NCBI GenBank assembly: GCA_050575255.1
Contig: JBNZDD010013717.1
Coordinates: forward strand, 4,480,457-4,544,456
Origin: Harriotta raleighana
Taxonomy: Eukaryota
Direction: 5' to 3'
DNA length: 64,000 nt
Both the position numbers and the translations under genes were made by a program. This document shows positions 14,397-51,330 of this stretch, piece by piece. How positions within the stretch are numbered: the stretch's first letter is position 1; each line of letters begins with the position of its first letter. The notes under the pieces were generated by a model that was given only the letters and a program-made list of their open reading frames with translations, did not search any database and had not been told where the DNA came from.

Positions 14397-15765
14397 CAAC
14401 AACAACAACAAAATTACATTTATATACCACCTTTCACGTCAGGAGGATGTCCCAAGGTCCTGGAAAGGTTATTGCCTCAGACCCGAGCTAAGGACAGGGA
14501 GGGAAGGCAGGAGTCGCCGATAGGACTATCGAAGAGTATAGTCTTGAGGCAAGACTTGAAGGAAGCCAGGGAGGGTGTGAGAGGGAAGCAATTTGGATGG
14601 AGTTCCAGAGGTTGGGGGCACAGTGACTGAAGGTTCGCCCGCCTATGGTTGGGCGGGTGGGTCGGGGGACATGCAGCAGGCCAGAGTGCTGAGCGGAGAG
14701 CACTTGCAGGTTGATAAGCTCCTGTGGTTTAGTGGTTAGAGCACTCGCCTTACAAGCATGAGACCTGTGTTCGAATCCTGGTAGATCAGGGCGAAACCTT
14801 GGGCAAGTTTCCTTACTCCACATGCCTAATAATAATCCCTCCAAAAATACCACAATAATAAAATTGGTCATTTCAATCCATGACTGTTTGTGGGACGCTG
14901 CTGTGCGCAATTGGCTGCCACATTCCACCCACAAATATACAGTCAATTCACTTTACAGTATATTCTGTGAAGCACTTTGAGACGTCGATAAAATGTGAAA
15001 AGTGCTATATCAAATGCAAGGATTATTATTATTACAAGGGGACAGCCGGTCGCGGATGTAGGGTGAGGTTTTGGAGGGCTTTATATGTGAGGACCAGGTT
15101 CTTGAATTGGATCCTCTGGGTGACGGGGAGCCAATGGAGTCGGGCAAGGAGGGGTGAGATGGGGGTCACGAAGTTTGGAATGAGAGAGGATATGGGCTGC
15201 AGAGTTTTGGATTAACTACAGCCTGTGGAGGGAGGAATAGGGGAGGCCGACCAGCAAGGCATTTGCATACTCGAGCTGGAATGTAATGAAGGCGTGGATG
15301 AGGGTTTCAGCGGTTTTAGGGGTCAGATAATGGTGGAGTCGGGAAATGTTGCGGAAGTGGGGAAAGGCAGAGTGAGTCATTGCTTTGATGTGAGGGAGGA
15401 AAGACAGTTGAGGGTCAAACAAGACACCTAGTTTCCTGACTGGCATGGTGAGGTTGAATGTGCAACTATGGAAGTTGATGAAGCCAGCGACTGATGGACG
15501 GAGGCGCTGGCGTGAGCCAATCATTAGGGCCTCGGTCTTGTTGACGTTCAACTGTAGAAAGTTAGCTCTCATTTCAGGACTTGATGTCTGACAGACAGTC
15601 TGTCAGGACAGTGGTAGTCCTGGAGCCAAGGGTAGAGGCAGAAAGATAGAGTTGGGTGTCATCTGCATGCATGTGGAAGTTAACCCCAAGCCTGGATGAT
15701 GTCACCAAGTGGGAGCACGTGTAGATTGAAAAGTAAGGGGCCAAGGACAGAGCCCTGGGGGACAA
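14397..15765 (-). mobile_element. 5'-truncated L2 LINE (RT C-terminal half to 3' tail), interrupted by a SINE
   Basis: HADDTQLY, ANFLQLNVNKTE, AETLIHAFIT, GGRTFSHCAPNLWNS, and an (AAC)n tail near 14397. Confidence 0.9.
14717..15034 (+). mobile_element. Full-length tRNA-derived SINE nested in L2
   Basis: Box A-like tttagtggttagagc, box B gttcgaatcc, conserved core tgtttgtgggacgctgctgtgcgcaattggctgcc and an (ATT)n tail. Confidence 0.88.
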
Positions 15766-16617
15766 AATGAAGCAAAACACAACTCATTTTACAGGCAAGT
15801 AAAACATGCATTTGACGAACTTCATGGTGGGGTGGTGGTGAAGTACAGTATTGAATACATATTTACAAATGAACAAATTCCAGAACATTTATTTCTCTCA
15901 CCACTTGACTATTTGTGTCTATTTTCTCTCCACTGACAGCATTTGCTCACCACATTTCCTTCCCCCAGTAACTTGGGACTCCCAGAATTCCCAGAATCAA
16001 TCTTGTTCCTTTTCTCTCAAAACTCGCTAGGCCTTTTCAGGATAAAATACAAAACTATACCTTATATTCCTCGGATGTATGCTTTATAACTTTGGAACTG
16101 AAAATAAGATCTGCTTTGATAACTTTGTTATTCACCCACATATACTGCATACAGTCAATTCACTTTACAGTATACCCTGTGAAGCACTTTGAGAAGTCTA
16201 GAAGATGTGAAAAGTGCTATCTGAAATGCAAGATTTCTGAATCAAGCAATATTATTTTAAAAATTATATCAACCAGTAAAGCTGATAAGACAGCTTGTAC
16301 GAGCATTAAGTCATAAAAATCTCTGTAGTACTGTAAGTTGAATTGGAATTTATAAAGATTTATGGAACCTTCAATATATTAATATCAAATATTTCCTTAG
16401 AAGCATTTTATTAATGAGGAGATTTTCTAATCATGCCTGAATTGTCCAGCATGGTAATTCCACTGTCTCTTTATAATAAAAATAATCCTTGCATTTGATA
16501 TAGCATCTTATCATGTCTTCAGGATTTCTATAGCGCTTCACAGAATATACTTCAAAGTGAATTGATGTATATATTTGTGGACCAAATGCTTTGCTTGTGA
16601 TTTCATGATCAAATAGT

Positions 16618-16922
16618 GGAGCCCTGTAGCTCAGTGGTTAGAGAACTCGCCTTACAAGGGTAAGACCTATGTTCGAATCCAGGCAGGGTGAAACCCTGGA
16701 CATGTTTCCTTTCTCCACACATAAAATAATAATCCCTGAAAAAAAAGACTATAAAAAAATTGGTCATTTCAATCTATGACTGTTTGTGGGACATTGCCAT
16801 GGGCAATTGGCTGCTTTGTTTCGCCCACAATTATATGGTCAATTCACAATATATTCTGTGAGGCGCTTTGGATGTGGTTAAGATGTGAAAAGCGCTATAT
16901 CACATACAAGGATTGTGATTAT
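16618..16922 (+). mobile_element. Full-length tRNA-derived SINE
   Basis: GGAGCCCTGTAGCTCAGTGGTTAGAG head, GTTCGAATCC box B, family core and tail. Confidence 0.88.
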
Positions 16923-18393: not shown

Positions 18394-19179
18394 GTCTAGA
18401 AGATGTCTAAAAGCGCTGTATTATAAATTTCCAGAAGTGACACTGTAGCCATTACAACCGTTCAACTTGTCTCACTTCAAGGAACTGCCAATTGGAGGCG
18501 AGGGACATACTTAGGTAGATCTGTATTCCTGTGGAGGTGATTCAACCAACAATAGAGGAATATCTTTTTTCAGACAGGGAAATAATGAAACTGAACAGAG
18601 GGGTTATCACACAAGATCTGGATAGTGGAGCAGGATGTCTTTTCTCTTTCCTCTGTTGGTGTGCATTACTCCAAATGTCCACTTAAGATGGTCTCCTGAT
18701 GTTAAAGGCTCTACGTAAAGGCTCTTGTTTTGTATAGCTACAGAGAGCTATTAAAATAGTTGTCTACCTGCTTGCTTCTGTGGTCAAACGTTATTTACAC
18801 ATATCGTTTTCAGCAGTGATTGCATGCTAGCAATCTAAGGCTCACAGATGATGATAATAATCATAACCTTTATATTTGATGTAGCATCTTATCATGTCAG
18901 AAGGGTGTTTCAAAGTGCTTCATAGCATTTACTGTGAAATGGAGTGACTGTGTATTTGTAGACAAACCTGGCAATTTAATTGCACACAATAATGATTCAC
19001 AACACAGCATGAAACAAAAGACAAATTTTATTTGGGGATTGTTGAGCAGGACACAGGGAGAAACGCCCTTCTGAATGCATAATTGTCCTCATGTTTTTAA
19101 GCACAAAGCCTCATTTTTCAAAAATAGAATTATGTAGAAGTCACTAATAGTGAAAAACTAAATTTAAGAATTTTTTCAA

Positions 19180-19496
19180 AATAATAATAACAATCCTTGC
19201 ATTTGATATAGCGCTTTTCACATCTTATTGACGTCTCAAAGTGCTTCACAGAATATACTGTAAAGTGAATTGACTGTATTTTTGTGGACAAAATGAGGCA
19301 GCCAATTGTGCACAAGAGTGTCCCACAAACAGTCATGGATTGAAGTGATCAATTTTTTTTTTTTGGGGGGGAGGGACTGTTATTAGGCATGTGGAGTAAG
19401 GAAACTTACCCAAGATTTCACCCTGACCTGTCTAGATTCGAACACACATCTCATGCTTGTAAGGCGAGTGCTCTAACCTCTGAGCTGCAGGACTCC
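19180..19496 (-). mobile_element. Full-length tRNA-derived SINE
   Basis: Reverse complement of the family consensus from the ggagtcctgcagctcag head to the (ATT)n tail. Confidence 0.88.
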
Positions 19497-23700: not shown

Positions 23701-26337
23701 AATATGAATTCCTCAGATTACTTAAACAAGCTCAAATAGCTGTCTTTTAAGCAAATAATGTCTTGACTGTACTTGAAAATGTTTCTTCATTTGCAGAAGA
23801 CATTTTGTTGTTAAATGATACATTTTCTACATAGTAAAGATCCGTAGCTTTTATGTCTACTTCCAAAGAGAGCACTGGCTGAGTGAAGAATGCTCCGTTC
23901 ATTCAATTTGTAAAGGTACACTCATCAATTCATAGCTCACGAGCAAGATACACCAGTGGAATAAAATGAACATTCTGCTGTTCTGCATTCTCTCCAATCT
24001 GCCCAAGTTCCAAATGGGTAAAGCATTTGTTTTAATTTGACTTTTTGCTTTGCACATTTCCCACGGGAACTATTGAAAAACAGAGAGCGCATTTTAGTAT
24101 GCCCTGTATATTGTGCAAGATCCCTCCATCAGCCCACACCCAGCAGTCTTGAAGAAACAATGGCTTTGAAATAAATTCAGACAGTAGAAACAGTATTTTC
24201 TTTAATTGAATTATTGTTGTGTCTCTCAATTAACCTCTGGTTATGGCCTCTTATTGGCTTCTCTACTTTGCACATGGCACCCATCCCATTCATATAAAGT
24301 GAAGCTAAGGAAGTATTCTGTGAAATGGCTCTAAAATGTTATGATCTGCAGGTGGCAGATTTAATGGCTTCCAAAAGTTGTCTCAATGGTCTCCATAGAC
24401 CACTTCATCGTCATCCATTCTGTCCATCTTGGTGGTGAGTGGAGCTGTTCTTTGTCAGTCAGATATTAACTGGGAGGAATTTCCTTCATTGTGATAATAA
24501 CACAGATGCTAATTATCAAACTGAAGGTGGTTTTCTCACCGTTACATGGGGTTGAAATATGTTTGTCAGAAAAACAGCAACCTAGCTCTTTTGTTTGTAA
24601 ATCATAAAACACCTCCTCCAAGAAGCCTAAGCACATAATCTCAACATGGTCCTCAGGTTGGACCCAAGGTTTCAGAAGTCATAGTGGTACAGAGCAATTC
24701 CTGTATTGAACTTAACCGATTCTTCCATTAAACAACTTTGAAGAATCTTTAATAAGGCCCAAAATTGCACCTCATCTAAATTGTTAAACCATTTTGCTTT
24801 AGAATGTAAGATTGCACAGAATTGTGGAAAAATCATCAATTCAGTGTGAATTTTGAATGCTTTTTTAAGAGCTGATGTAACAGGCTACCAAATTAATTCT
24901 GAATTGAAGATGATTTAACATTTTAAGGCAAAATAGTTTTACATGCTCAGACAAAAAGAAATTTCTTCCTAATAATATTTTCTCTCCTCTATCCTATATA
25001 AACAGTCTTCCAACTCATTGGTTCACTGGAGATTTACTTCCACTTGAATCAATAGTCTACTTTTCCTCTTTCAGATGCTGATAGTCTCATTTACATTTCC
25101 AACATTTCTTAAACTCATTATATTTCAGGGTAATGAGGAAAGGTGGTGTCCAAGGAGATGGGATTTTTTTTGCCTCCCGAACAGAAAAGATCAGAATAAT
25201 ATTTGAAGCAACTGTTTAAGTTGCTTTAATTAAGAAAATGTCAACACCATCAGAATTTATCGTACCCAACTGCATAAACTTCTCCTGATGTAAATGGCAC
25301 TGACCAACATTCATCCAGCGATAAATGAACATTCACTTCATGACAGTTTATGGGACATTACTGTGCATTTATTGACTGCCACTTATGCTCACAAACGCTA
25401 CATTGTGCATTCTATGAAGCACCTTGAGATTTTGCAATGATATGCAAAGGCTCTATAACAAACGCCAGGATTAATTATTATTACTATTAATATTGGTGCA
25501 TTTGATTTAACACTTTTATGTCAGGAGGACATGCTCAGTGGATAGGCCTGGCATGTCACTCAAAGAGAGTCACATAAGTTGATTCCATAAATTATTTAAA
25601 GATGCCTATTCAAAAATATTAATGTTTTCCTTTGTATTACATTGGTAAAAATCTATGTATCTTTACCCCTTGTCAAGCTAGAATAATTTCGAATCAATAA
25701 TAACTTTTTACCTCATTGACATACTGTTGTACATTAAGCAACATAGAACTGCTGCAACTCTCTTTTGTTACTCTGAAAATCAATTCCTATCATGCAAACA
25801 GGAAGATTGNCTTGTCAAGCTAGAATAATTTCGAATCAATAATAACTTTTCACCTCATTGACATACTGTTGTACATTAAGCAACATAGAACTGCTGCAAC
25901 TCTCCTCTTTTGTTACTCTGAAAATCAATTCCTATCATGCAAACAGGAAGATTGTAAATCTCATAGATTCTCTCCAAGGCTTTGGCACCCCATGCTGGTA
26001 TACTATATGTACTGCAGTCTAACATGGAATCTTTTCCAGTTCAGTATTTCTCTGGTATAATCGTGAAGTTTCATGTAAGAATAAGAAAAGACCATTTTAA
26101 CCCTGTAAAACAATGGTATAAAAAGCCATAGTCAGCACTTATATTGGGGTTTTGTGGGGCTATTTTGGAATGGTCGCTGATTAATGAGGCAGCATCAATT
26201 TAAGATCATCTTGAAAAAACAAAGAAGTGGATTGCAGATTTCTTTACCTGAGAGTTATTAGAATATGGGTAATGTGTTATAAAATGCAGCTGGATTTATA
26301 ATCGAATTTAAAGGGCATTTAGACAAATATTTGAAAA

Positions 26338-26778
26338 CAACAAATTTGATTTATATAGCGCCCTCCACCCCTGGCGGTGTCTCAGAGCGCTTCACAATAA
26401 CGGATCCTGGGGCTGAGTCAGGGGCAGGGGAAAAAGGTGACCAAAGGTGCGGTCAAAAAGAAAGGTCTTTAGCCGAGACTTGAAACTAGGAAGGAAGGGG
26501 GCGAGGCAAAGGGAGTGAGGAAGGGAATTCCAGAGCTTCGGGGCGTAGTGGCTGAAGGCACGGCCGCTGATAGTGGAGCAGAGGAGACAAGGGGGACAAG
26601 GAGGAGACCAGAATCGGAAGAACGAAGACAATGTATGCTGTTTTGAGGAGAGAGGAGGTCAGAGAGGTAGTGGGGGTGCAGAGGAGTGGAGAGATTTGAA
26701 GACAAGAGTGATGATCTTGATAGGGAGCCAGTGAAGTCTGGCAAGGCCTGGGGTAATGGGGGAGCAAAGTTTGGTGGA
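26338..26778 (-). mobile_element. L2 3' fragment
   Basis: PITPGLARLHWLP, SGRAFSHYAPKLWNSLP, FKSRLKTFLF and the family tail. Confidence 0.88.
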
Positions 26779-30087: not shown

Positions 30088-30392
30088 ATAATAATAATAA
30101 TCCTTGAATTTTATGTGTTGCTTTTCACTTCTTCTAGATGTCTCACAGCGCTTCACAGAATCCTGTAAAATGAATTGACTGTATATTTGTGGGTGAAATG
30201 CGGCAGCCAATTGCGCACAACAGTGTCCCTCAAACAGTCGTGGATTGAAATGGCCAATTTAGTATTTTTTTGAGCAATTATTATCAGACGTGTGGAGTAA
30301 GGAAACTTGCCCAAGGTTTCACTCTGCCTGGAATCAAACCCAGGTCTCTCACATGCAAGGCCAGTGCTCTAACCACTGAACTACAGGACTCC
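30088..30392 (-). mobile_element. Full-length tRNA-derived SINE
   Basis: Reverse complement of the family consensus. Confidence 0.88.
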
Positions 30393-35029: not shown

Positions 35030-36175
35030 AGGGTCAATGTGGGCTGCTGAACGCACATGACTCAAATCTGGCCTAATGGTCCACCGGCATACAAGAAACA
35101 ACCAAATGACACTTATAGATCGCCTTTCAAGACTATACCTGGCTGGAGCACATCAAAACATACGGCTCTGCTCTCACCTCTGTTAAATCATCCTTCTAAT
35201 CCAAGATAATCCTGGAGGTGGTGAAGCCGCACACTCCCATTCTCTGCAACCAACTGACTACTCCATCCACCCATTCCCCCTCACCACACCTCGCCTAAAC
35301 TCTCCTTAAAATTCTGACTGTGAGGAGATGCTTGATTTCTTTGAGTCCAAAATCAAGGGAATCCATTCAACTGCCTCTGCCTTCCCAACCACAACTCCAC
35401 CCCAATTTCCCCCCACCCTCCACACTCCAAATCCTACCCATCCCTCCTTCCACATTTTCGAACCTCTCTCTCCTTCTCCTCGCTTGCCTCCCTACTCCCC
35501 AACACCAGCAATCTCTCTCTGTCATCTGACTCCCATCCCATACCCCTCAAAGCAGCTACAATTACCCCTATCCTGAGTAAACCTTCCCTGGACGGATTCC
35601 TGCTTTCCAGCTTTTGGCTCATCTCCAACCTTCTTTTTCTCTCTAAGGTCTTTAAAATAGTTACAAAACACAAAATACTACAGATGCTGGAAATCTGAAA
35701 TGAAAACAGAAGTTGCTGGGAAAACGGGTCGTTTCTGATGAAGGGTCGTGGACCCGAAATGTTGACTCATTTTCCTTTCTCTATGGATGCTGCCTGACCT
35801 GTTCAGTTTACCCTGCAACTTCTATTTTTCTTTAAAAGAGTTGTTGCTTCCCAACTCTGCTCTTTCTTCCCATTCCCTTCACGAGCCCCTCAAATCGGGT
35901 TTCCATGCCACTCACAGCACAAAATCTGCTCTGGTCAAGGTCACAAACGACATCCTGTTCAACTGTGACCAGGGATCAATTCTGCCTCTGTGTCCTCCTC
36001 GACCTTTCTGCTGATTTCGATACTGTGTACCACTCAATCCTCTTCCACTGTCTCTCCTCACACATCAACCTTCAAGATATTGTCCTTGACTGGTTCAGGC
36101 CTTATCACTCAAATCATCTCCAATTTGTCTCCACTATGGTTTCTTTTCCAGCCCTCACACCATCTATTGCATGAA
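35030..36175 (+). mobile_element. Degraded internal L2 ORF2 fragment
   Basis: CEEMLDFFESKIKGI, SGFHATHSTKSALVKVTND, LLDLSADFDTVYHSIL, VLDWF. Confidence 0.82.
35663..35828 (+). mobile_element. Short Penelope-like (pLTR-derived) element with hammerhead core, copy 1
   Basis: 14-bp TSD tctttaaaatagtt/tctttaaaagagtt. Contains CTGATGA-A-GGGTC-GTG-GACCC-GAAA at 35735-35759. The 5' arm is an inverted copy of the element 3' end. Confidence 0.7.
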
Positions 36176-36339
36176 TAGAAGATGTGAAAAGCGCTAATCA
36201 AATGTAAAGATTATTACTATTGTAGCAAGTTACCTTATTGAACTGCAGAAATAACCAGAGTCTGGCAAGACCTTCGGCTCATATTTTATCTACAATTAAA
36301 TCAGGGCATTATTGGCTTCAGCACTACTGAATGCAATGC

Positions 36340-36945
36340 AACAACAACAACGATTTATTTCACGCCATGCCGGATGGCGTCTCAGAGCGCTTCACAATAA
36401 CGAATCCTGGGCCCAAGCCAGGATCAGGGAGAGAAAGGTGACCAAAGGAGTGGTCAAAGAGAAAGGTCTTTAGCTGAACCTGAAACTGGGAAGAGAAGAG
36501 GAAAGGCGAATGGAGTGAGGAAGGGAGTTCCAGAGCCTCGGGGCATTGTGGCTGAAGGCATGTCCGTCGATGGTGGAGGGAAGGATTCGGGGGACAGGGA
36601 GGAGGCCAGACCCAGTGGAGCAAAGGCAATGGGTGCTGGTTTGAGGAGAGAGGAGGTCGAAGAGGTAGGGGTTACAGAGGAACGGAAGGATTTGAAAACA
36701 AGGGTGAGGATCTTGAAATTGATCCTTTCTGGGACAGGGAGCCAGTGAAGTCTGGCAAGGACTGGGGTAATGGGGGAGCGAAGTTTGGTGTGGGTGAGAA
36801 TGTGGGCGGCAGAGTTTTGAATGAGTTAGATTTTATCGATTATGGTAGAGGGGAGACCGGAGAAGAGGGCATTGGAATAGTCCAGCCGAGAGGTGACAAA
36901 GGCATGGACCAAGGACCAGGGTGACAAAGGCATGGACCAGACCAA
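36340..36945 (-). mobile_element. L2 3' fragment
   Basis: Reverse strand encodes VHAFVTSRLDYSNALFSGLPS...QNSAAHILTHTK...LHWLP, followed by the family tail. Confidence 0.9.
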
Positions 36946-38761: not shown

Positions 38762-41700
38762 GTACAACTGCAAGATTGGCCTTGGCAAGGGTTTGAGAAG
38801 CTTTTCCACACTCAGCCACACAGCCACATCCTCCTGTCGTGAAAGACGCTATACAAGTGTAATTTTGTTGTGGTGTTGTTGTTGATGCACTCTACTGGGA
38901 GAAATTGCCAATTACCTAACAACCAGATTCCTACTTACTGCTAGGTAAACCGAGGTATGTAGAGTAAGGAAACATGCCTAGTGTTTGGCTCTGTTGGCAA
39001 TCTAACCCAGTTCTTCTCCACTTATGAAGTGACTTATCTAACCACTCTGCTACAGGACTCGAATATGAATTGGCTGCAACATTCACCTACAGATTGTACA
39101 GCCACTACACTTTACAGAATACCATGTGAAGCACTTTGAAATGTCCTGTCACAAAATGCATTGCATCAAAGGATCATGTTTTTATTTACTTATTTATTTA
39201 AATTGTTGTTACGTATTTTGCACCATTAAAATTCAATCTAAAACATGAAAATAATGCTTGTAGAAATTGACTCTTTTGAAAATACCATAGGATTAATTTA
39301 CTTGTCAAAGCAGAGCATCTTTCTACACACCTAGAACATAAGAAGAAAGAGATTTTAAAATTTGCCCTTGGACACGACTGTTACACATACAGTACAAACA
39401 TTAATAAAAACATGACAATGCTAGAAACTTTTAAAACTCTATCCGATATTTCTTCGAAATATAATATAGAATAGGTATCCAAATATTAACAGATTTATTT
39501 TCACATACACAAAATAAGCCATAATTAAATTTGCCTACAGTATTCTTGCATTGCCTGTCTGGGCACGCTTAAATTACCTGTCTCCATGCATATAAATTAC
39601 CAATGTCTAGACATTCATGAATTAGTCTCAACAACATGTTGCTTCAGTTTAATAACATCCATGCCAATCTGAAGTTTCAAACTATTAGCTTTTGAAACAC
39701 TTCCAAAAGAGAATTTAGCAAGAGATTTTTAAAATAAAATGCAGTGATAATGTGGAACTCAGTGCCATTGTGGTTATGCAGAAAACGTCAACACATTTAA
39801 GAAGAAATTTGGAGCATACATGAAAGAGGAGGGAATAGAGGAGAAGAGATGGGGAGAATAGGAGAGGTGGAGGTTCATGTAGAATATAAATTAAATAAAA
39901 TATCAATTTGGTCACTCACATTAGCTGCTGCATTTTGCCCACAAATATGCAGTCAATTGATTTTACAGTATATTCCATGAAGCTCTTTGAGATGGCTAGA
40001 AGATATAAAAAGCACTGTATCAAATGCAACTATTATTATAATTAGTATTATTATTAGAAACACCAGCATGGACAATTTAGACTGAAAGGCTTATTTCTGT
40101 GAAGTGATGCTCTATGTAATTCTATCACTTTCACATCTCGATTTTCATTCTGTAAAGACTATGATCTTCTTCTGAAATATTATCTACCTGAAATGAGAAA
40201 GTCTAATTATTGACAAAAATAAGTTTTATAATATATATTTACAAGTGTATCAATTGTCCTTTCATTATTTTGTTTCATTATTATTATTATTATTATATCA
40301 GGAAGATATCTCATAAGATCACAGGACATCCATCCTCCCATTACTGTAACAAGCTGCTTTTTAAATGAATCCAGAGTGCTGGCTTCTACTACCTGTTCCA
40401 TTTGTTGGTTTCCATCTGAATAAAGAAAAACATCATCGTATCTGTTTCTGAAATTGCCCTGTATAACTCTAAACCAATGTTCTCTTGTTCAAATATCTTG
40501 ATGCAACCTAAGCTATTGATCTGGGAGAGGAGGGGAAGACAAATAATCTATTAAATAATAAATGCAGTATTCCTTCATGTGTTATTTAATGCAGTATTTC
40601 CATCCCCTCCTCTTACTTTCCATGTAAATAGAAGAGCTAACACTGTTAAATTAGTCAACTAAGCCTCTCAAACAGAAGTTTAAAAATCTCTCTCAGCCAG
40701 CTACACTCATCTGACATGCCAACTCACATGCCAACCACATTTGCTATTCATATACAGTAATGCTGACAACAGAGTATAAATATAAAGTAGCCATTAACTG
40801 ATCTAAAAGAGAGGAGGAGCATCTTTACCCGGAGGGCAGAAGGAATGTGAAACACACAATCAGAAACTATGGTTGAAGTAGGAAACATCAACGCATTTAA
40901 GAGGAAACAATGTTCAGTATAACTGAAAAGGAAGGAGACAGTGTGTTGGAAGAGATTAGGAAGCGGGATTGGGTTGGGTGGAATTTCATGAGGAGTAGAA
41001 ACACCAGCATGGGCTAGTTGGAATGTGTGTCCTGCTTCAGTATGGTAGGTGCTCTGTAATTCTATGTAATAAGGTAGTGTTAAGGGTTATTTAATCACCT
41101 AATCAGATAAATGGAACCTAGGTTCAGTATCTCATTCAAAGGATGGCCATAGACCGTGAACTCGGTATTCTGACATACAGGCTGAACCCACATCCTTCCG
41201 ACTCAGATGTCAAACTACTCCAAACTGAGGTAAATTGAAACCATTTTTACCACATGTATCAACTTCTGCTTCCTTCTTCAACCCAACTTTAACCATCTAG
41301 TTACAAACCTATTGAAGACAATTGGTTATAGAAACTATCTATTACAGTAAAACCCTGTTTATCCAATAGTGGCCAGTGGCGGTTAAACTGTTTTTCCGGT
41401 TGAACAGATTTTTTTNGTACAACTGCAAGATTGGCCTTGGCAAGGGTTTGAGAAGCTTTTCCACACTCAGCCACACAGCCACATCCTCCTGTCGTGAAAG
41501 ACGCTATACAAGTGTAATTTTGTTGTGGTGTTGTTGTTGATGCACTCTACTGGGAGAAATTGCCAATTACCTAACAACCAGATTCCTACTTACTGCTAGG
41601 TAAACCGAGGTATGTAGAGTAAGGAAACATGCCTAGTGTTTGGCTCTGTTGGCAATCTAACCCAGTTCTTCTCCACTTATGAAGTGACTTATCTAACCAC

Positions 41701-44070
41701 TCTGCTACAGGACTCGAATATGAATTGGCTGCAACATTCACCTACAGATTGTACAGCCACTACACTTTACAGAATACCATGTGAAGCACTTTGAAATGTC
41801 CTGTCACAAAATGCATTGCATCAAAGGATCATGTTTTTATTTACTTATTTATTTAAATTGTTGTTACGTATTTTGCACCATTAAAATTCAATCTAAAACA
41901 TGAAAATAATGCTTGTAGAAATTGACTCTTTTGAAAATACCATAGGATTAATTTACTTGTCAAAGCAGAGCATCTTTCTACACACCTAGAACATAAGAAG
42001 AAAGAGATTTTAAAATTTGCCCTTGGACACGACTGTTACACATACAGTACAAACATTAATAAAAACATGACAATGCTAGAAACTTTTAAAACTCTATCCG
42101 ATATTTCTTCGAAATATAATATAGAATAGGTATCCAAATATTAACAGATTTATTTTCACATACACAAAATAAGCCATAATTAAATTTGCCTACAGTATTC
42201 TTGCATTGCCTGTCTGGGCACGCTTAAATTACCTGTCTCCATGCATATAAATTACCAATGTCTAGACATTCATGAATTAGTCTCAACAACATGTTGCTTC
42301 AGTTTAATAACATCCATGCCAATCTGAAGTTTCAAACTATTAGCTTTTGAAACACTTCCAAAAGAGAATTTAGCAAGAGATTTTTAAAATAAAATGCAGT
42401 GATAATGTGGAACTCAGTGCCATTGTGGTTATGCAGAAAACGTCAACACATTTAAGAAGAAATTTGGAGCATACATGAAAGAGGAGGGAATAGAGGAGAA
42501 GAGATGGGGAGAATAGGAGAGGTGGAGGTTCATGTAGAATATAAATTAAATAAAATATCAATTTGGTCACTCACATTAGCTGCTGCATTTTGCCCACAAA
42601 TATGCAGTCAATTGATTTTACAGTATATTCCATGAAGCTCTTTGAGATGGCTAGAAGATATAAAAAGCACTGTATCAAATGCAACTATTATTATAATTAG
42701 TATTATTATTAGAAACACCAGCATGGACAATTTAGACTGAAAGGCTTATTTCTGTGAAGTGATGCTCTATGTAATTCTATCACTTTCACATCTCGATTTT
42801 CATTCTGTAAAGACTATGATCTTCTTCTGAAATATTATCTACCTGAAATGAGAAAGTCTAATTATTGACAAAAATAAGTTTTATAATATATATTTACAAG
42901 TGTATCAATTGTCCTTTCATTATTTTGTTTCATTATTATTATTATTATTATATCAGGAAGATATCTCATAAGATCACAGGACATCCATCCTCCCATTACT
43001 GTAACAAGCTGCTTTTTAAATGAATCCAGAGTGCTGGCTTCTACTACCTGTTCCATTTGTTGGTTTCCATCTGAATAAAGAAAAACATCATCGTATCTGT
43101 TTCTGAAATTGCCCTGTATAACTCTAAACCAATGTTCTCTTGTTCAAATATCTTGATGCAACCTAAGCTATTGATCTGGGAGAGGAGGGGAAGACAAATA
43201 ATCTATTAAATAATAAATGCAGTATTCCTTCATGTGTTATTTAATGCAGTATTTCCATCCCCTCCTCTTACTTTCCATGTAAATAGAAGAGCTAACACTG
43301 TTAAATTAGTCAACTAAGCCTCTCAAACAGAAGTTTAAAAATCTCTCTCAGCCAGCTACACTCATCTGACATGCCAACTCACATGCCAACCACATTTGCT
43401 ATTCATATACAGTAATGCTGACAACAGAGTATAAATATAAAGTAGCCATTAACTGATCTAAAAGAGAGGAGGAGCATCTTTACCCGGAGGGCAGAAGGAA
43501 TGTGAAACACACAATCAGAAACTATGGTTGAAGTAGGAAACATCAACGCATTTAAGAGGAAACAATGTTCAGTATAACTGAAAAGGAAGGAGACAGTGTG
43601 TTGGAAGAGATTAGGAAGCGGGATTGGGTTGGGTGGAATTTCATGAGGAGTAGAAACACCAGCATGGGCTAGTTGGAATGTGTGTCCTGCTTCAGTATGG
43701 TAGGTGCTCTGTAATTCTATGTAATAAGGTAGTGTTAAGGGTTATTTAATCACCTAATCAGATAAATGGAACCTAGGTTCAGTATCTCATTCAAAGGATG
43801 GCCATAGACCGTGAACTCGGTATTCTGACATACAGGCTGAACCCACATCCTTCCGACTCAGATGTCAAACTACTCCAAACTGAGGTAAATTGAAACCATT
43901 TTTACCACATGTATCAACTTCTGCTTCCTTCTTCAACCCAACTTTAACCATCTAGTTACAAACCTATTGAAGACAATTGGTTATAGAAACTATCTATTAC
44001 AGTAAAACCCTGTTTATCCAGTAGTGGCCAGTGGCGGTTAAACTGTTTTTCCGGTTGAACAGATTTTTTT
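38762..44070 (+). repeat. 2654-bp direct duplication (38762-41415 = 41417-44070) separated by one N; probable false duplication
   Basis: Constant offset of 2655, with identical ORFs at 39715/42370 and 40207/42862. One mismatch noticed (41366 A versus 44021 G). Confidence 0.93.
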
Positions 44071-44767: not shown

Positions 44768-44912
44768 TAGTTGCCTTCTGAAATATGTTCAATACATTTA
44801 CATTTTCTACTAATTTAGTTACTTCTTCCAAGAATCCCTTTGTTTAATTGAACATTGACCTTGCTTCATTGCCCTCATTGAGTTCATCTTCTCAACTGCT
44901 CTTGGACATTTT

Positions 44913-45215
44913 GTCCTGTAGCTCACTCGCCTACAGGCGAGCACTCGCCTTATAAGTGACAGACCTGGGATCAATTTCAGGCAGGGCAAAACCTTGGACA
45001 AGTTTCCTTACTCCACACTTCTGATAATAATCTCTCAAGAAAGAAAATTAATAAATCGGTCATTTCAATCCATTACTGTTTGCGGAACACTGCAATTGGT
45101 TACCACGTTTTGCCCACAAATATACCGTCAATTCACTTTAAAGTATATTCTGTGAAGCACTTTGAGACATCTAAAAGATGTGAAAAGCAGTACATCAAAT
45201 GCAAGGATTATTATG
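44913..45215 (+). mobile_element. tRNA-derived SINE
   Basis: Family consensus, with an internal duplication of cactcgcct in the head. Confidence 0.85.
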
Positions 45216-45382
45216 AATATTATTTTCTCCGCTAATGACTCTATTTCTTTAATTCACGTCTTACTTATGTTTTGAAGATAGAAATGTTACATCATTCAGT
45301 ACTGAGGTGCAACGTATTTTTATTGAACATGAACATTAGTTTGTCTAGCTTTTTTTGTTCAGTTGCTCTCATTCTACGTCTA

Positions 45383-46282: not shown

Positions 46283-46402
46283 CTAACCTATTATCAATGG
46301 TGAAGATTAGCCTAGGTGATGGATTTAGCATTTTTGAGGAGGTTCACTAGATTCCATAGATACACATTCATTCTGAATCTTGATTTTCTCAGCATTTTAG
46401 AG

Positions 46403-46860
46403 CAACAACAACAACTTTGATTTATATAGCGCCCTCCATGCCGGACGGCATCTTAGATCGCTCCACAACAATGGATCCCGGGACCGAGCAAGGGCAGGGG
46501 TAGAAAGGTGACCAAAGGTGCGATTAAAGAGAAAGATCTTTAGCTGGGACCTGAAACTGGGAAGAGAGGGGACAAAGTGAAGGGAGTGAAGAAAAGAGTT
46601 CCAGAGCTTTGGGGTGTATTGGCTTAAAGCACGGCTGCCGAGGGTGGAGTGGAGGATTTGGGGAACAAGGAGGAGGCCAGATCCGGTGGAGCGAAGGTAA
46701 CGGGTGCTGGTTTGAGGAGAGAGGAGGTTGGAGAGGTAGGGGGGGTGCAGAGGAGTGAAGGGATTTGAAAACAAGGGTGAGGATCTTGAAGTCGATCCTC
46801 TCTGGGACAGGGAGCCAGTGGTCTGGCAAAGATTGGGGTAAGGGGGGAGTGAAGTTTGTA
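46403..46860 (-). mobile_element. L2 3' fragment
   Basis: HWLPVPERIDFKILTLVFKSLH, GSRALSQYTPKLWNS and an (AAC)n tail. Confidence 0.9.
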
Positions 46861-49800: not shown

Positions 49801-51330
49801 GAGGACATCAATTTACACCCAGGAATATCCTATAAACCCAGATGTTTGAGAGAAATGAAGTGATTGTCAAATTTTACCAGGAGAATTTTTGACCAAGACA
49901 CTAGGAGAAATTTATTTTAAAATATTACCAAGGGATCTGAACGGGCAGACAGGACCTTGATTTAATATCTCATTTGAATAATAACACACTTGACAATGTA
50001 GCGCTTCCCCTAGCACAGCAAAATTGAAGCATCATTCCTAAATTATGAGCTGAAAGTCCTGATGTGGGGTCTTGAATCCACAACGTGCAGTTATTAGATG
50101 ACTTGATGTCTGCTGGTGTCTTATGTAACTTGAAAGACCACAATGAGTTCTGTGATTTTTTTGGATTTTATGCAGATATTTAGTCTTTGAATTCCACAGC
50201 ATCAAATATATGGTTTCACCATCAAGAATCATGGCCTAAATATTTGATGTAGGTACAGCAGAAGATGTCTTAAAATGACTTGGGCCTCTGTAAGAATTTT
50301 TCTTAAAAATGAACTTATCACCCACTAAAAATTATTATTTTCACTTTACCCTATAAAGTAGATCTTATACTTGGAATAAAATACACCAATATTATAGTTA
50401 GTGAGAAATGATATAATTGGTTCAGATTTTCTTCTACTTTTATTCATTAAAATAATAAATCAAGTAGAAAAGGCAAATTAAATTGTGTTTAGTTCAATGC
50501 TTTGCTGTGCTACTCCTAGTGAAGGCGCAGTATAAATGCAAGTTGTTGTTGAGTTTGGGTTGATGGCTTGATGATTAATATTCACTCAACAATCTTTATG
50601 CTTTGTTCAGAGGTTATGTATTATACGGCCGAATATTGATTCTTCATATCGAATGATATGCTGCATAGAATGGTTAATTTGATGAATAATATCAATTAAA
50701 ATAATAATGAAATTCCACTCTATAAGGAGATACAGATCTTTTTACACCAAACATATTTGTTGGTAATTTTTCAAATTCACTACAATATGGAGTAAATGAT
50801 TAAGTAAATTAAATTCAGTGAAATACTATGTAAACCATTTGGTCCGGTTGTTCTCACTCACCAGAGGCCCCAAATTCCAAATAGTCCTAACCCGTATTAA
50901 AATTAAGGATCATGCAGAATTATAGAAAATTNTGTAAGATAGTTTGGTATTAAAATTAAGGATCATGCAGAATTATAGAAAATTCTTAAATACAGCCTTA
51001 CTTTAGAAGCTGGTTCTCTGTAGTTCTTAAAAAGAAAATAAATAATGGTTGAGAATGCAAAACTGACTCAAAATAAGTGACTTCAGTTGTTAACACTCTT
51101 GCCTCTGAGAGTTAGGAGGTTGTCCCAAGTCAGGACTTGGAAACTAAAATTCTATGCTGAAAATGCAATGCAGTGATGGGGATGTGCTGGATTGTCAAAT
51201 CGGACATTAAACCAAGGTCCCATCTACCTGTCCAATTGGATGTTATAGAGCCCATGGCACTATTTGAAAAGAGAGGGAGTTTCTCCCAGTGTCCTGGCCA
51301 ACAATCCCTCAATCAAATTAAATTGGTCAT

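Follow-up and report, generated by a model that had tools for sequence, protein, structure and literature searches.

A 166-bp insert at positions 35663-35828 of the analyzed window, a 64,000-nt stretch of the Harriotta raleighana genome, is best explained as a head-to-head pair of 5′-truncated pLTR stubs of an autonomous Penelope-like element (PLE), likely laid down in one event from two separately primed cDNAs. The hammerhead that it carries is a motif of the family's pLTR and is predicted to be inactive in this copy. We assign this reading a probability of roughly 85%. The insert is referred to as copy 1, and element positions are numbered with C3 of the hammerhead as +1.

Target site and anatomy of the insert

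Copy 1 splits an L2-like reverse transcriptase (RT) fragment, with the left part at 35538-35648 and the right part at 35843-36120 (both forward strand); an uninterrupted copy in L064 is 73% identical across the site. When the insert and one target-site duplication (TSD) were deleted in silico, five of 23 blastn matches among the retrieved loci spanned the site with a single target copy, the best relative at 73% over 400 bp; the claim of the initial annotation that a 166-bp insert interrupts an L2 fragment is thus borne out. With the same deletion, the flank translation reads LLFLSKVFKIV/VASQL...SGFHATHSTKSALVKVTNDIL...LLDLSADFDTV and contains RT-like motifs, which we take to be those of an L2/CR1 element. 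The left TSD, TCTTTAAAATAGTT (35649-35662, forward strand), and the right TSD, TCTTTAAAAGAGTT (35829-35842, forward strand), are 14 bp long and match at 13 of 14 positions; the left copy carries one G>T relative to the right, and uninterrupted L2 relatives have AAAGAGT here. Of 20,000 positions sampled at random in the window, 24 had a repeat of at least 13/14 at equal spacing. Because the target is single in uninterrupted relatives and such repeats are rare at random positions, the imperfect 14-bp TSD first described is real.

The inverted arm (35663-35725, reverse strand) corresponds to pLTR +72 to +134, is identical to the family majority at 61 of 63 positions and stops at the long, tail-bearing end. 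An inverted first part had been proposed correctly, with a length of about 58 bp that is revised here to 63 bp. The forward arm (35733-35828, forward strand) covers pLTR -1 to +94 and stops at the short, tail-less end; the first five nucleotides of the right TSD (TCTTT) resemble element positions +95 to +99 (TGTTT). The inverted and forward arms thus stop at different element ends, the long (+134) and the short (about +99), respectively, and both element 3′ ends point outward. Between the arms lies a 7-nt filler, GGGTCGT (35726-35732, forward strand), identical to 35743-35749, which we infer to be likely a templated insertion made during end joining; similar locally copied fillers are also found at other fold-back junctions.

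The nearest other copy of the family, copy 2 (51330-51574, forward strand), lies 15.7 kb away. Its forward arm (51408-51574) reaches the long end and is preceded by an inverted piece of 3′ UTR (about 51330-51412), and a 15-bp TSD flanks it at 51315-51329 and 51575-51589. Its hammerhead core has G8>A and a deletion of G1.1.

Further repeats lie in the window. A repeat of about 450 bp has three copies of 78-82% identity (26336-26776, 36338-36790 just right of the insert, and 46402-46858), and a dispersed repeat of about 315 bp with a tRNA-like head, likely a tRNA-derived SINE, is found at 14720-15034, 16617-16922, 19179-19493, 30088-30390, 44912-45226, 52143-52461 and 62313-62607. Segments 38762-41415 and 41417-44070 form a 2,654-bp tandem duplication of 99.96% identity, which may have arisen very recently or may reflect misassembly.

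The parent element

The hammerhead-bearing sequence is the pLTR of an autonomous PLE encoding RT and GIY-YIG, since it lies behind the end of the GIY-YIG ORF and behind RT in the longer copies. The family is large: a 23-mer has at least 2,432 exact matches in the genome, against 0 for the control. Upstream of copy 2, sequence walking passes through a pyrimidine-rich UTR and reaches a GIY-YIG C-terminus. Among 30 peptide-anchored GIY-YIG loci, a hammerhead arm lies 200-330 bp behind the ORF end in 26 (two of which represent one tandem duplication), further off in two, and is absent from two. This linkage, together with the RT motifs DKG, SLYT, MGT and YIDD upstream of GIY-YIG (RVT_1 E=3.9e-4, below the cut-off), agrees with the initial annotation, which had suggested looking for RT and GIY-YIG ORFs and had recognized a hammerhead of the PLE kind in an inverted-pLTR arrangement. 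One copy, L140, is unbroken from -2655 to +97 and aligns to a 904-aa RVT_1 + GIY-YIG protein at 45% over 348 aa (E=3e-98); Pfam gave no match at E≤0.1 on L140 itself. The element's own GIY-YIG Pfam scores are weak (E 0.05-0.14), and its homologues carry RVT_1 and GIY-YIG. The GIY-YIG domain, with CCHH, is C-terminal to RT and upstream of the pLTR, which is the layout of EN+ PLEs, and at one locus (L117/L137) the tail continues into the 5′ region of the ORF, a hallmark of PLE partial tandems.

The best named protein relatives come from rays and sharks (52-63% identity). A CX4CxxC linker precedes GIY-YIG, with a CHRRRCNTC-type motif in three stop-free matches and in L087; a CX2-5CxxC linker is described in Neptune and Nematis and as absent from Penelope/Poseidon (partial text of PMC8557442). 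Judged by this sequence motif, which Nematis shares, the parent element is likely of the Neptune type, and a Poseidon label was dropped once the linker had been checked. All the ORFs recovered are broken, and stop-free reading extends for at most 469 codons, so that no complete donor element was recovered. A 653-codon frame in L115 was discarded as an artefact, most likely of an N run, since it is open in all frames.

Near the 3′ end of L131/L139, a UTR segment of about 170 bp between two CCCCAGTT repeats is gone, likely through a microhomology deletion. Element copies in L089/L090, L104, L105, L106 and L148 lie in near-identical tandem duplications 1-5 kb apart, which are either recent or assembly artefacts.

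The hammerhead motif

The minimal type I hammerhead occupies 35735-35767 (forward strand) and reads CTGATGA-A-GGGTC-GTG-GACCC-GAAA-TG-TT-GACT. It comprises the CUGAUGA box (35735-35741), an extra A (35742), stem II GGGUC/GACCC with a GUG loop (35743-35755) and GAAA (35756-35759), which upholds the core as originally described, with both boxes, a 5-bp stem II and one extra nucleotide. Positions 15.2/16.2 are UG (CG in the family), followed by U16.1-U17, a predicted cut at 35763|35764 and the stem I 3′ strand GACU. The insert spans the predicted cut site, so its template was uncleaved.

A search pattern that fixed the two boxes and left stem II free had at least 1,686 genome matches against 1 in the control. 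The boxes around helix II and U16.1-H17 are present in both the family majority and copy 1. In the aligned arms, the extra nucleotide 9.1 is A in 250/257, position 10.1 is G in 230/257 and 11.1 is C in 213/278. The family has the 15.2-16.2 palindrome ACGU and a 4-bp stem I (AGUU/GACU), and its majority shows all min-HHR features listed in the available text of PMC4209133. Copy 1 keeps neither the palindrome nor a complete stem I, losses that the initial annotation had not noted: C15.2 has decayed to T, giving AUGU, and half of the stem I 5′ strand is missing, with TT retained and AG replaced by the filler, which leaves two good pairs followed by U-C and G-U.

Copy 1 could still be a working or co-opted ribozyme, given its intact core boxes and stem II, yet this is extremely improbable in view of the damaged stem I and palindrome and of a predicted fold in which the filler pairs with U17, out of register. 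The nearest other copy carries G8>A, and copy 1 departs from the family majority at 10 sites over roughly 100 nt, a level consistent with neutral decay, the median identity to the majority being 92% among 75 short anchor arms. The hammerhead of copy 1 is predicted to be inactive. As modeled, RNA folding gives no independent support for the hammerhead (z=-0.99 for copy 1, z 0.20 for a family-type copy). An Rfam scan of the window at E≤5, which included the hammerhead models proposed as a check in the initial annotation, gave no hammerhead match and only tRNA-like repeats elsewhere.

An older, rarer sister pLTR family has stem II AGGTC-ATC-GACCT (L276-L295; L044:1037-1102), and its copies mostly start at the hammerhead 5′ edge. 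Its 10.1-11.1 pair is A-U, with A in 52 of the 85 matches by visual count and the U fixed by the search pattern; it also differs in the loop and has A at 1.1. Between the two families, one stem change is two-sided (10.1-11.1, with its pattern-fixed U) and one is one-sided, amounting to modest covariation at most. By tblastn, no GIY-YIG was found in 20 sister-family loci, and a pattern search for a third hammerhead family found none (96 matches against 68 in the control).

Two outer ends, one per arm

Arm coverage falls from 275 at +99 to 180 at +103, and from 128 at +133 to 12 at +140, which defines two outer ends about 35 nt apart, a distance equal to the tail length. The ends were classified in 88 anchors, drawn from 90 loci among the first 100 listed of the 2,432 23-mer matches after two duplicates were dropped; this sample comes from smaller contigs and from matches to an exact 23-mer, and includes a few re-duplicated or nested loci (L176/L177, L181/L182, L167/L190/L197). 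There are 52 single arms (25 short, 24 long, 3 other), a tally in which one locus whose inverted arm stops at +55 is included, and 36 fold-backs, namely 31 long+short, one long+long, one short+short and three unclassified with arm ends elsewhere. The long+short combination thus accounts for 31/33 classifiable fold-backs (p=6.5e-8 against 0.5). A second set of 96 ORF-anchored loci yielded 16 fold-backs, 14 of them long+short, one short+short and one borderline. A short+short inverted repeat is no longer than a long+short one, so hairpin instability probably does not explain its scarcity. Copy 1 keeps this rule and copy 2 breaks it; the inverted arm begins at neither end in copy 2 and in 3-4 of the 36 fold-backs, so other routes to fold-backs exist.

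A tail at one end only has been described for PLEs (partial texts of PMC8557442 and PMC3846280), and in the Anolis PLE two internal RT start sites bound the tail, with both strands cut and extended and uncleaved RNA as the main substrate (partial text of PMC11167929). The pairing of one tailed with one tail-less arm fits this known tail and two-site initiation, which makes two separately primed cDNAs likely. Alternatively, a single cDNA might have folded back and primed synthesis on itself as far as the short end, as proposed for PLE inverted repeats (partial text of PMC3846280). In favor of such self-priming, junction fillers frequently copy nearby sequence in direct or inverted orientation, and subfamily letters are nearly always common to both arms. 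In copy 1, however, the short-end arm has 73 nt absent from the long-end arm, and the long-end arm has the tail absent from the short-end arm, so neither was copied from the other without later deletion. Among the 31 long+short fold-backs, the short-end arm extends further 5′ in 14, by up to 2.6 kb (L140), the other arm in 12, and the two are equal in five. Since either arm may reach further 5′, these data speak against self-priming and favor two primed cDNAs. In L145 and L154, the long-end arm is 30-45 nt and its short-end partner 1.8-2.4 kb, lengths that snap-back of a single cDNA could not produce. Self-priming is accordingly considered very unlikely.

The initial annotation had regarded the insert as a non-autonomous mini-element mobilized in trans, which is unsupported here. 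Such an element, SINE- or retrozyme-like, would be transcribed from short pLTR copies and moved by the PLE protein. Short copies do greatly outnumber ORF-bearing ones, with 110/124 arms starting downstream of -50 and with 4,591 first-look candidates for the insert (40 scored) against 169 for the RT stretch; retrozymes have been proposed as pLTR-derived (partial text of bioRxiv 10.64898/2026.07.22.740005), and for a rotifer PLE, mobilization of other sequence in trans with pLTRs alone has been reported (partial text of PMC3846280). However, lengths among the 53 oriented fold-backs vary between 97 and 284 bp, no single length being represented by more than three, and the 36 fold-back junctions all differ except at re-duplicated loci; without a common length or junction, no master fold-back was amplified, and the fold-back is not a separate family. 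ORF-bearing copies contain the same sequence, no private 5′ head or exon is present, and within copy 1 a repeat comparison in the window revealed no tandem units, nor was there a tRNA match. Also missing from the insert is the stretch following the tail that the Anolis PLE needs on its template in vitro (partial text of PMC11167929), a requirement that would count against mobility in trans if it transfers to this clade. For the fold-back as a unit this explanation is largely refuted, and overall we judge it unlikely. Nested or repeated composites of several arms with common flanks (L167, L176, L177, L190, L197 and L209) may represent a duplicated secondary unit.

The 5′ edge of the arms

The 5′ ends of the arms accumulate at the head of the hammerhead, with 45/124 at -6 to +3, compared with eight in the 44 nt upstream and ten in the 10 nt downstream. 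Ribozyme cleavage as the determinant of these ends was rejected, given that two of 124 arms start at +29/+30; among the 52 single arms, none starts at +28 to +33 and 22 start at -6 to +3. In 108 arms stopping at the 5′ edge, C-4 is kept in 57%, A-3 in 55% and C-5 in 32%. Splicing of a common first exon onto the -4/-3 edge was likewise dismissed, as these 108 arms have no upstream sequence in common, show background base composition from -5 outward and carry no extra G. Most simply, transcription would start at C-4/A-3 and these arms would be run-off cDNAs; the Penelope element of D. virilis has a transcription start site inside its pLTR (partial text of PMC2377424). A hairpin-induced stop is a rival explanation of the -4/-3 edge, with a family-type copy predicted to fold into a rod based at A-3. 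Within limited literature coverage, no published account of a 5′-end pile-up at the hammerhead was found, nor any literature on cartilaginous-fish Neptune Penelope elements with a hammerhead.

Tentatively, and with somewhat less than even odds, we suggest that the RNA begins at the first base of stem I (C-4/A-3, within an initiator-like CCAGTTC) and that internal priming in the 5′ pLTR yields strong-stop-like run-off cDNAs. The protein dimer would use its start sites strictly one per strand, also in Neptune, and the 100-250-bp stubs, thousands in number, would be a fossil record of insertion. If so, the mRNA would begin with the ribozyme, which would have no role in making the insertion template.

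Proposed route of insertion and comparison with known systems

To generate copy 1 as paired pLTR stubs, the element endonuclease would nick an AT-rich L2 remnant once on each strand, the nicks being staggered by 14 bp; fold-back TSDs are at least 8 bp in 41/53, mostly 10-17 bp with a mode of 14, and 70% AT. Each 3′-OH would then serve as primer for reverse transcription, which would begin at one or the other of two internal sites separated by about 35 nt, with uncleaved element RNA, one molecule or two, as the template. One cDNA would halt at +72 and the other would reach the likely RNA 5′ end (about -4/-3), after which end joining would link them and leave the 7-nt templated filler. The resulting stubs would be dead on arrival and would not form an independently moving family. 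The mechanistic biochemistry comes from a Poseidon element, whereas the element here is likely Neptune.

Cervera and De la Peña (2014) reported min-HHRs in the pLTRs of metazoan PLEs (PMC4209133, available text). Their motifs resemble the present one in being type I without a real helix III, in the palindromic 15.2-16.2, the extra nucleotide between 9 and 10.1, G10.1-C11.1 and a 4-bp helix I, and in occurring mostly as single motifs in truncated copies, with some opposite-strand pairs 100-700 bp apart. Here, in contrast, helix II has 5 bp, the cut triplet is GUU, copy 1 is decayed and the host is a cartilaginous fish, a group unnamed in the available text. Inverted-pLTR insertions of EN+ PLEs (Arkhipova 2013, PMC3846280; Craig 2021, PMC8557442; partial texts) likewise have head-to-head pLTRs, a 30-40-bp tail at one end, a variable short TSD and a partial-tandem pLTR-ORF junction; unlike those described there, both arms here retain just the final 60-100 nt, and adherence to the one-tail rule has been counted (31/33 and 14/16). 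In PAc, the Poseidon element of Anolis carolinensis (Frangieh 2024, PMC11167929, partial text), two 3′ ends also bound a tail downstream of the hammerhead, targets are AT-rich and inserts cross the ribozyme cut site. The present element differs in its CX2-5CxxC linker, absent in Penelope/Poseidon, and in that the frame in which the PAc ORF starts, at stem II, closes inside the pLTR. Non-LTR retrozymes, reported in one chondrichthyan genome, are also non-coding and pLTR-related with a type I hammerhead (bioRxiv 10.64898/2026.07.22.740005, available text); they are head-to-tail tandems with a hammerhead per unit, whereas copy 1 is a lone head-to-head insert, flanked by a TSD, in which the hammerhead occurs once.

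Copy 1 is therefore genuine and belongs to a known class: it is an inverted-pLTR stub left by a PLE, likely Neptune, and its minimal hammerhead has decayed. As one decayed stub among thousands, the single locus matters little, and such stubs should be annotated as PLE pLTR remnants and not as a new ribozyme SINE. The family, in turn, offers a countable genomic test of PLE insertion, a process recently studied in vitro in one Poseidon element. The pairing of tailed with tail-less arms and the pile-up of 5′ ends at the head of the ribozyme, not at its cut site, provide specific predictions for the in vitro assay.
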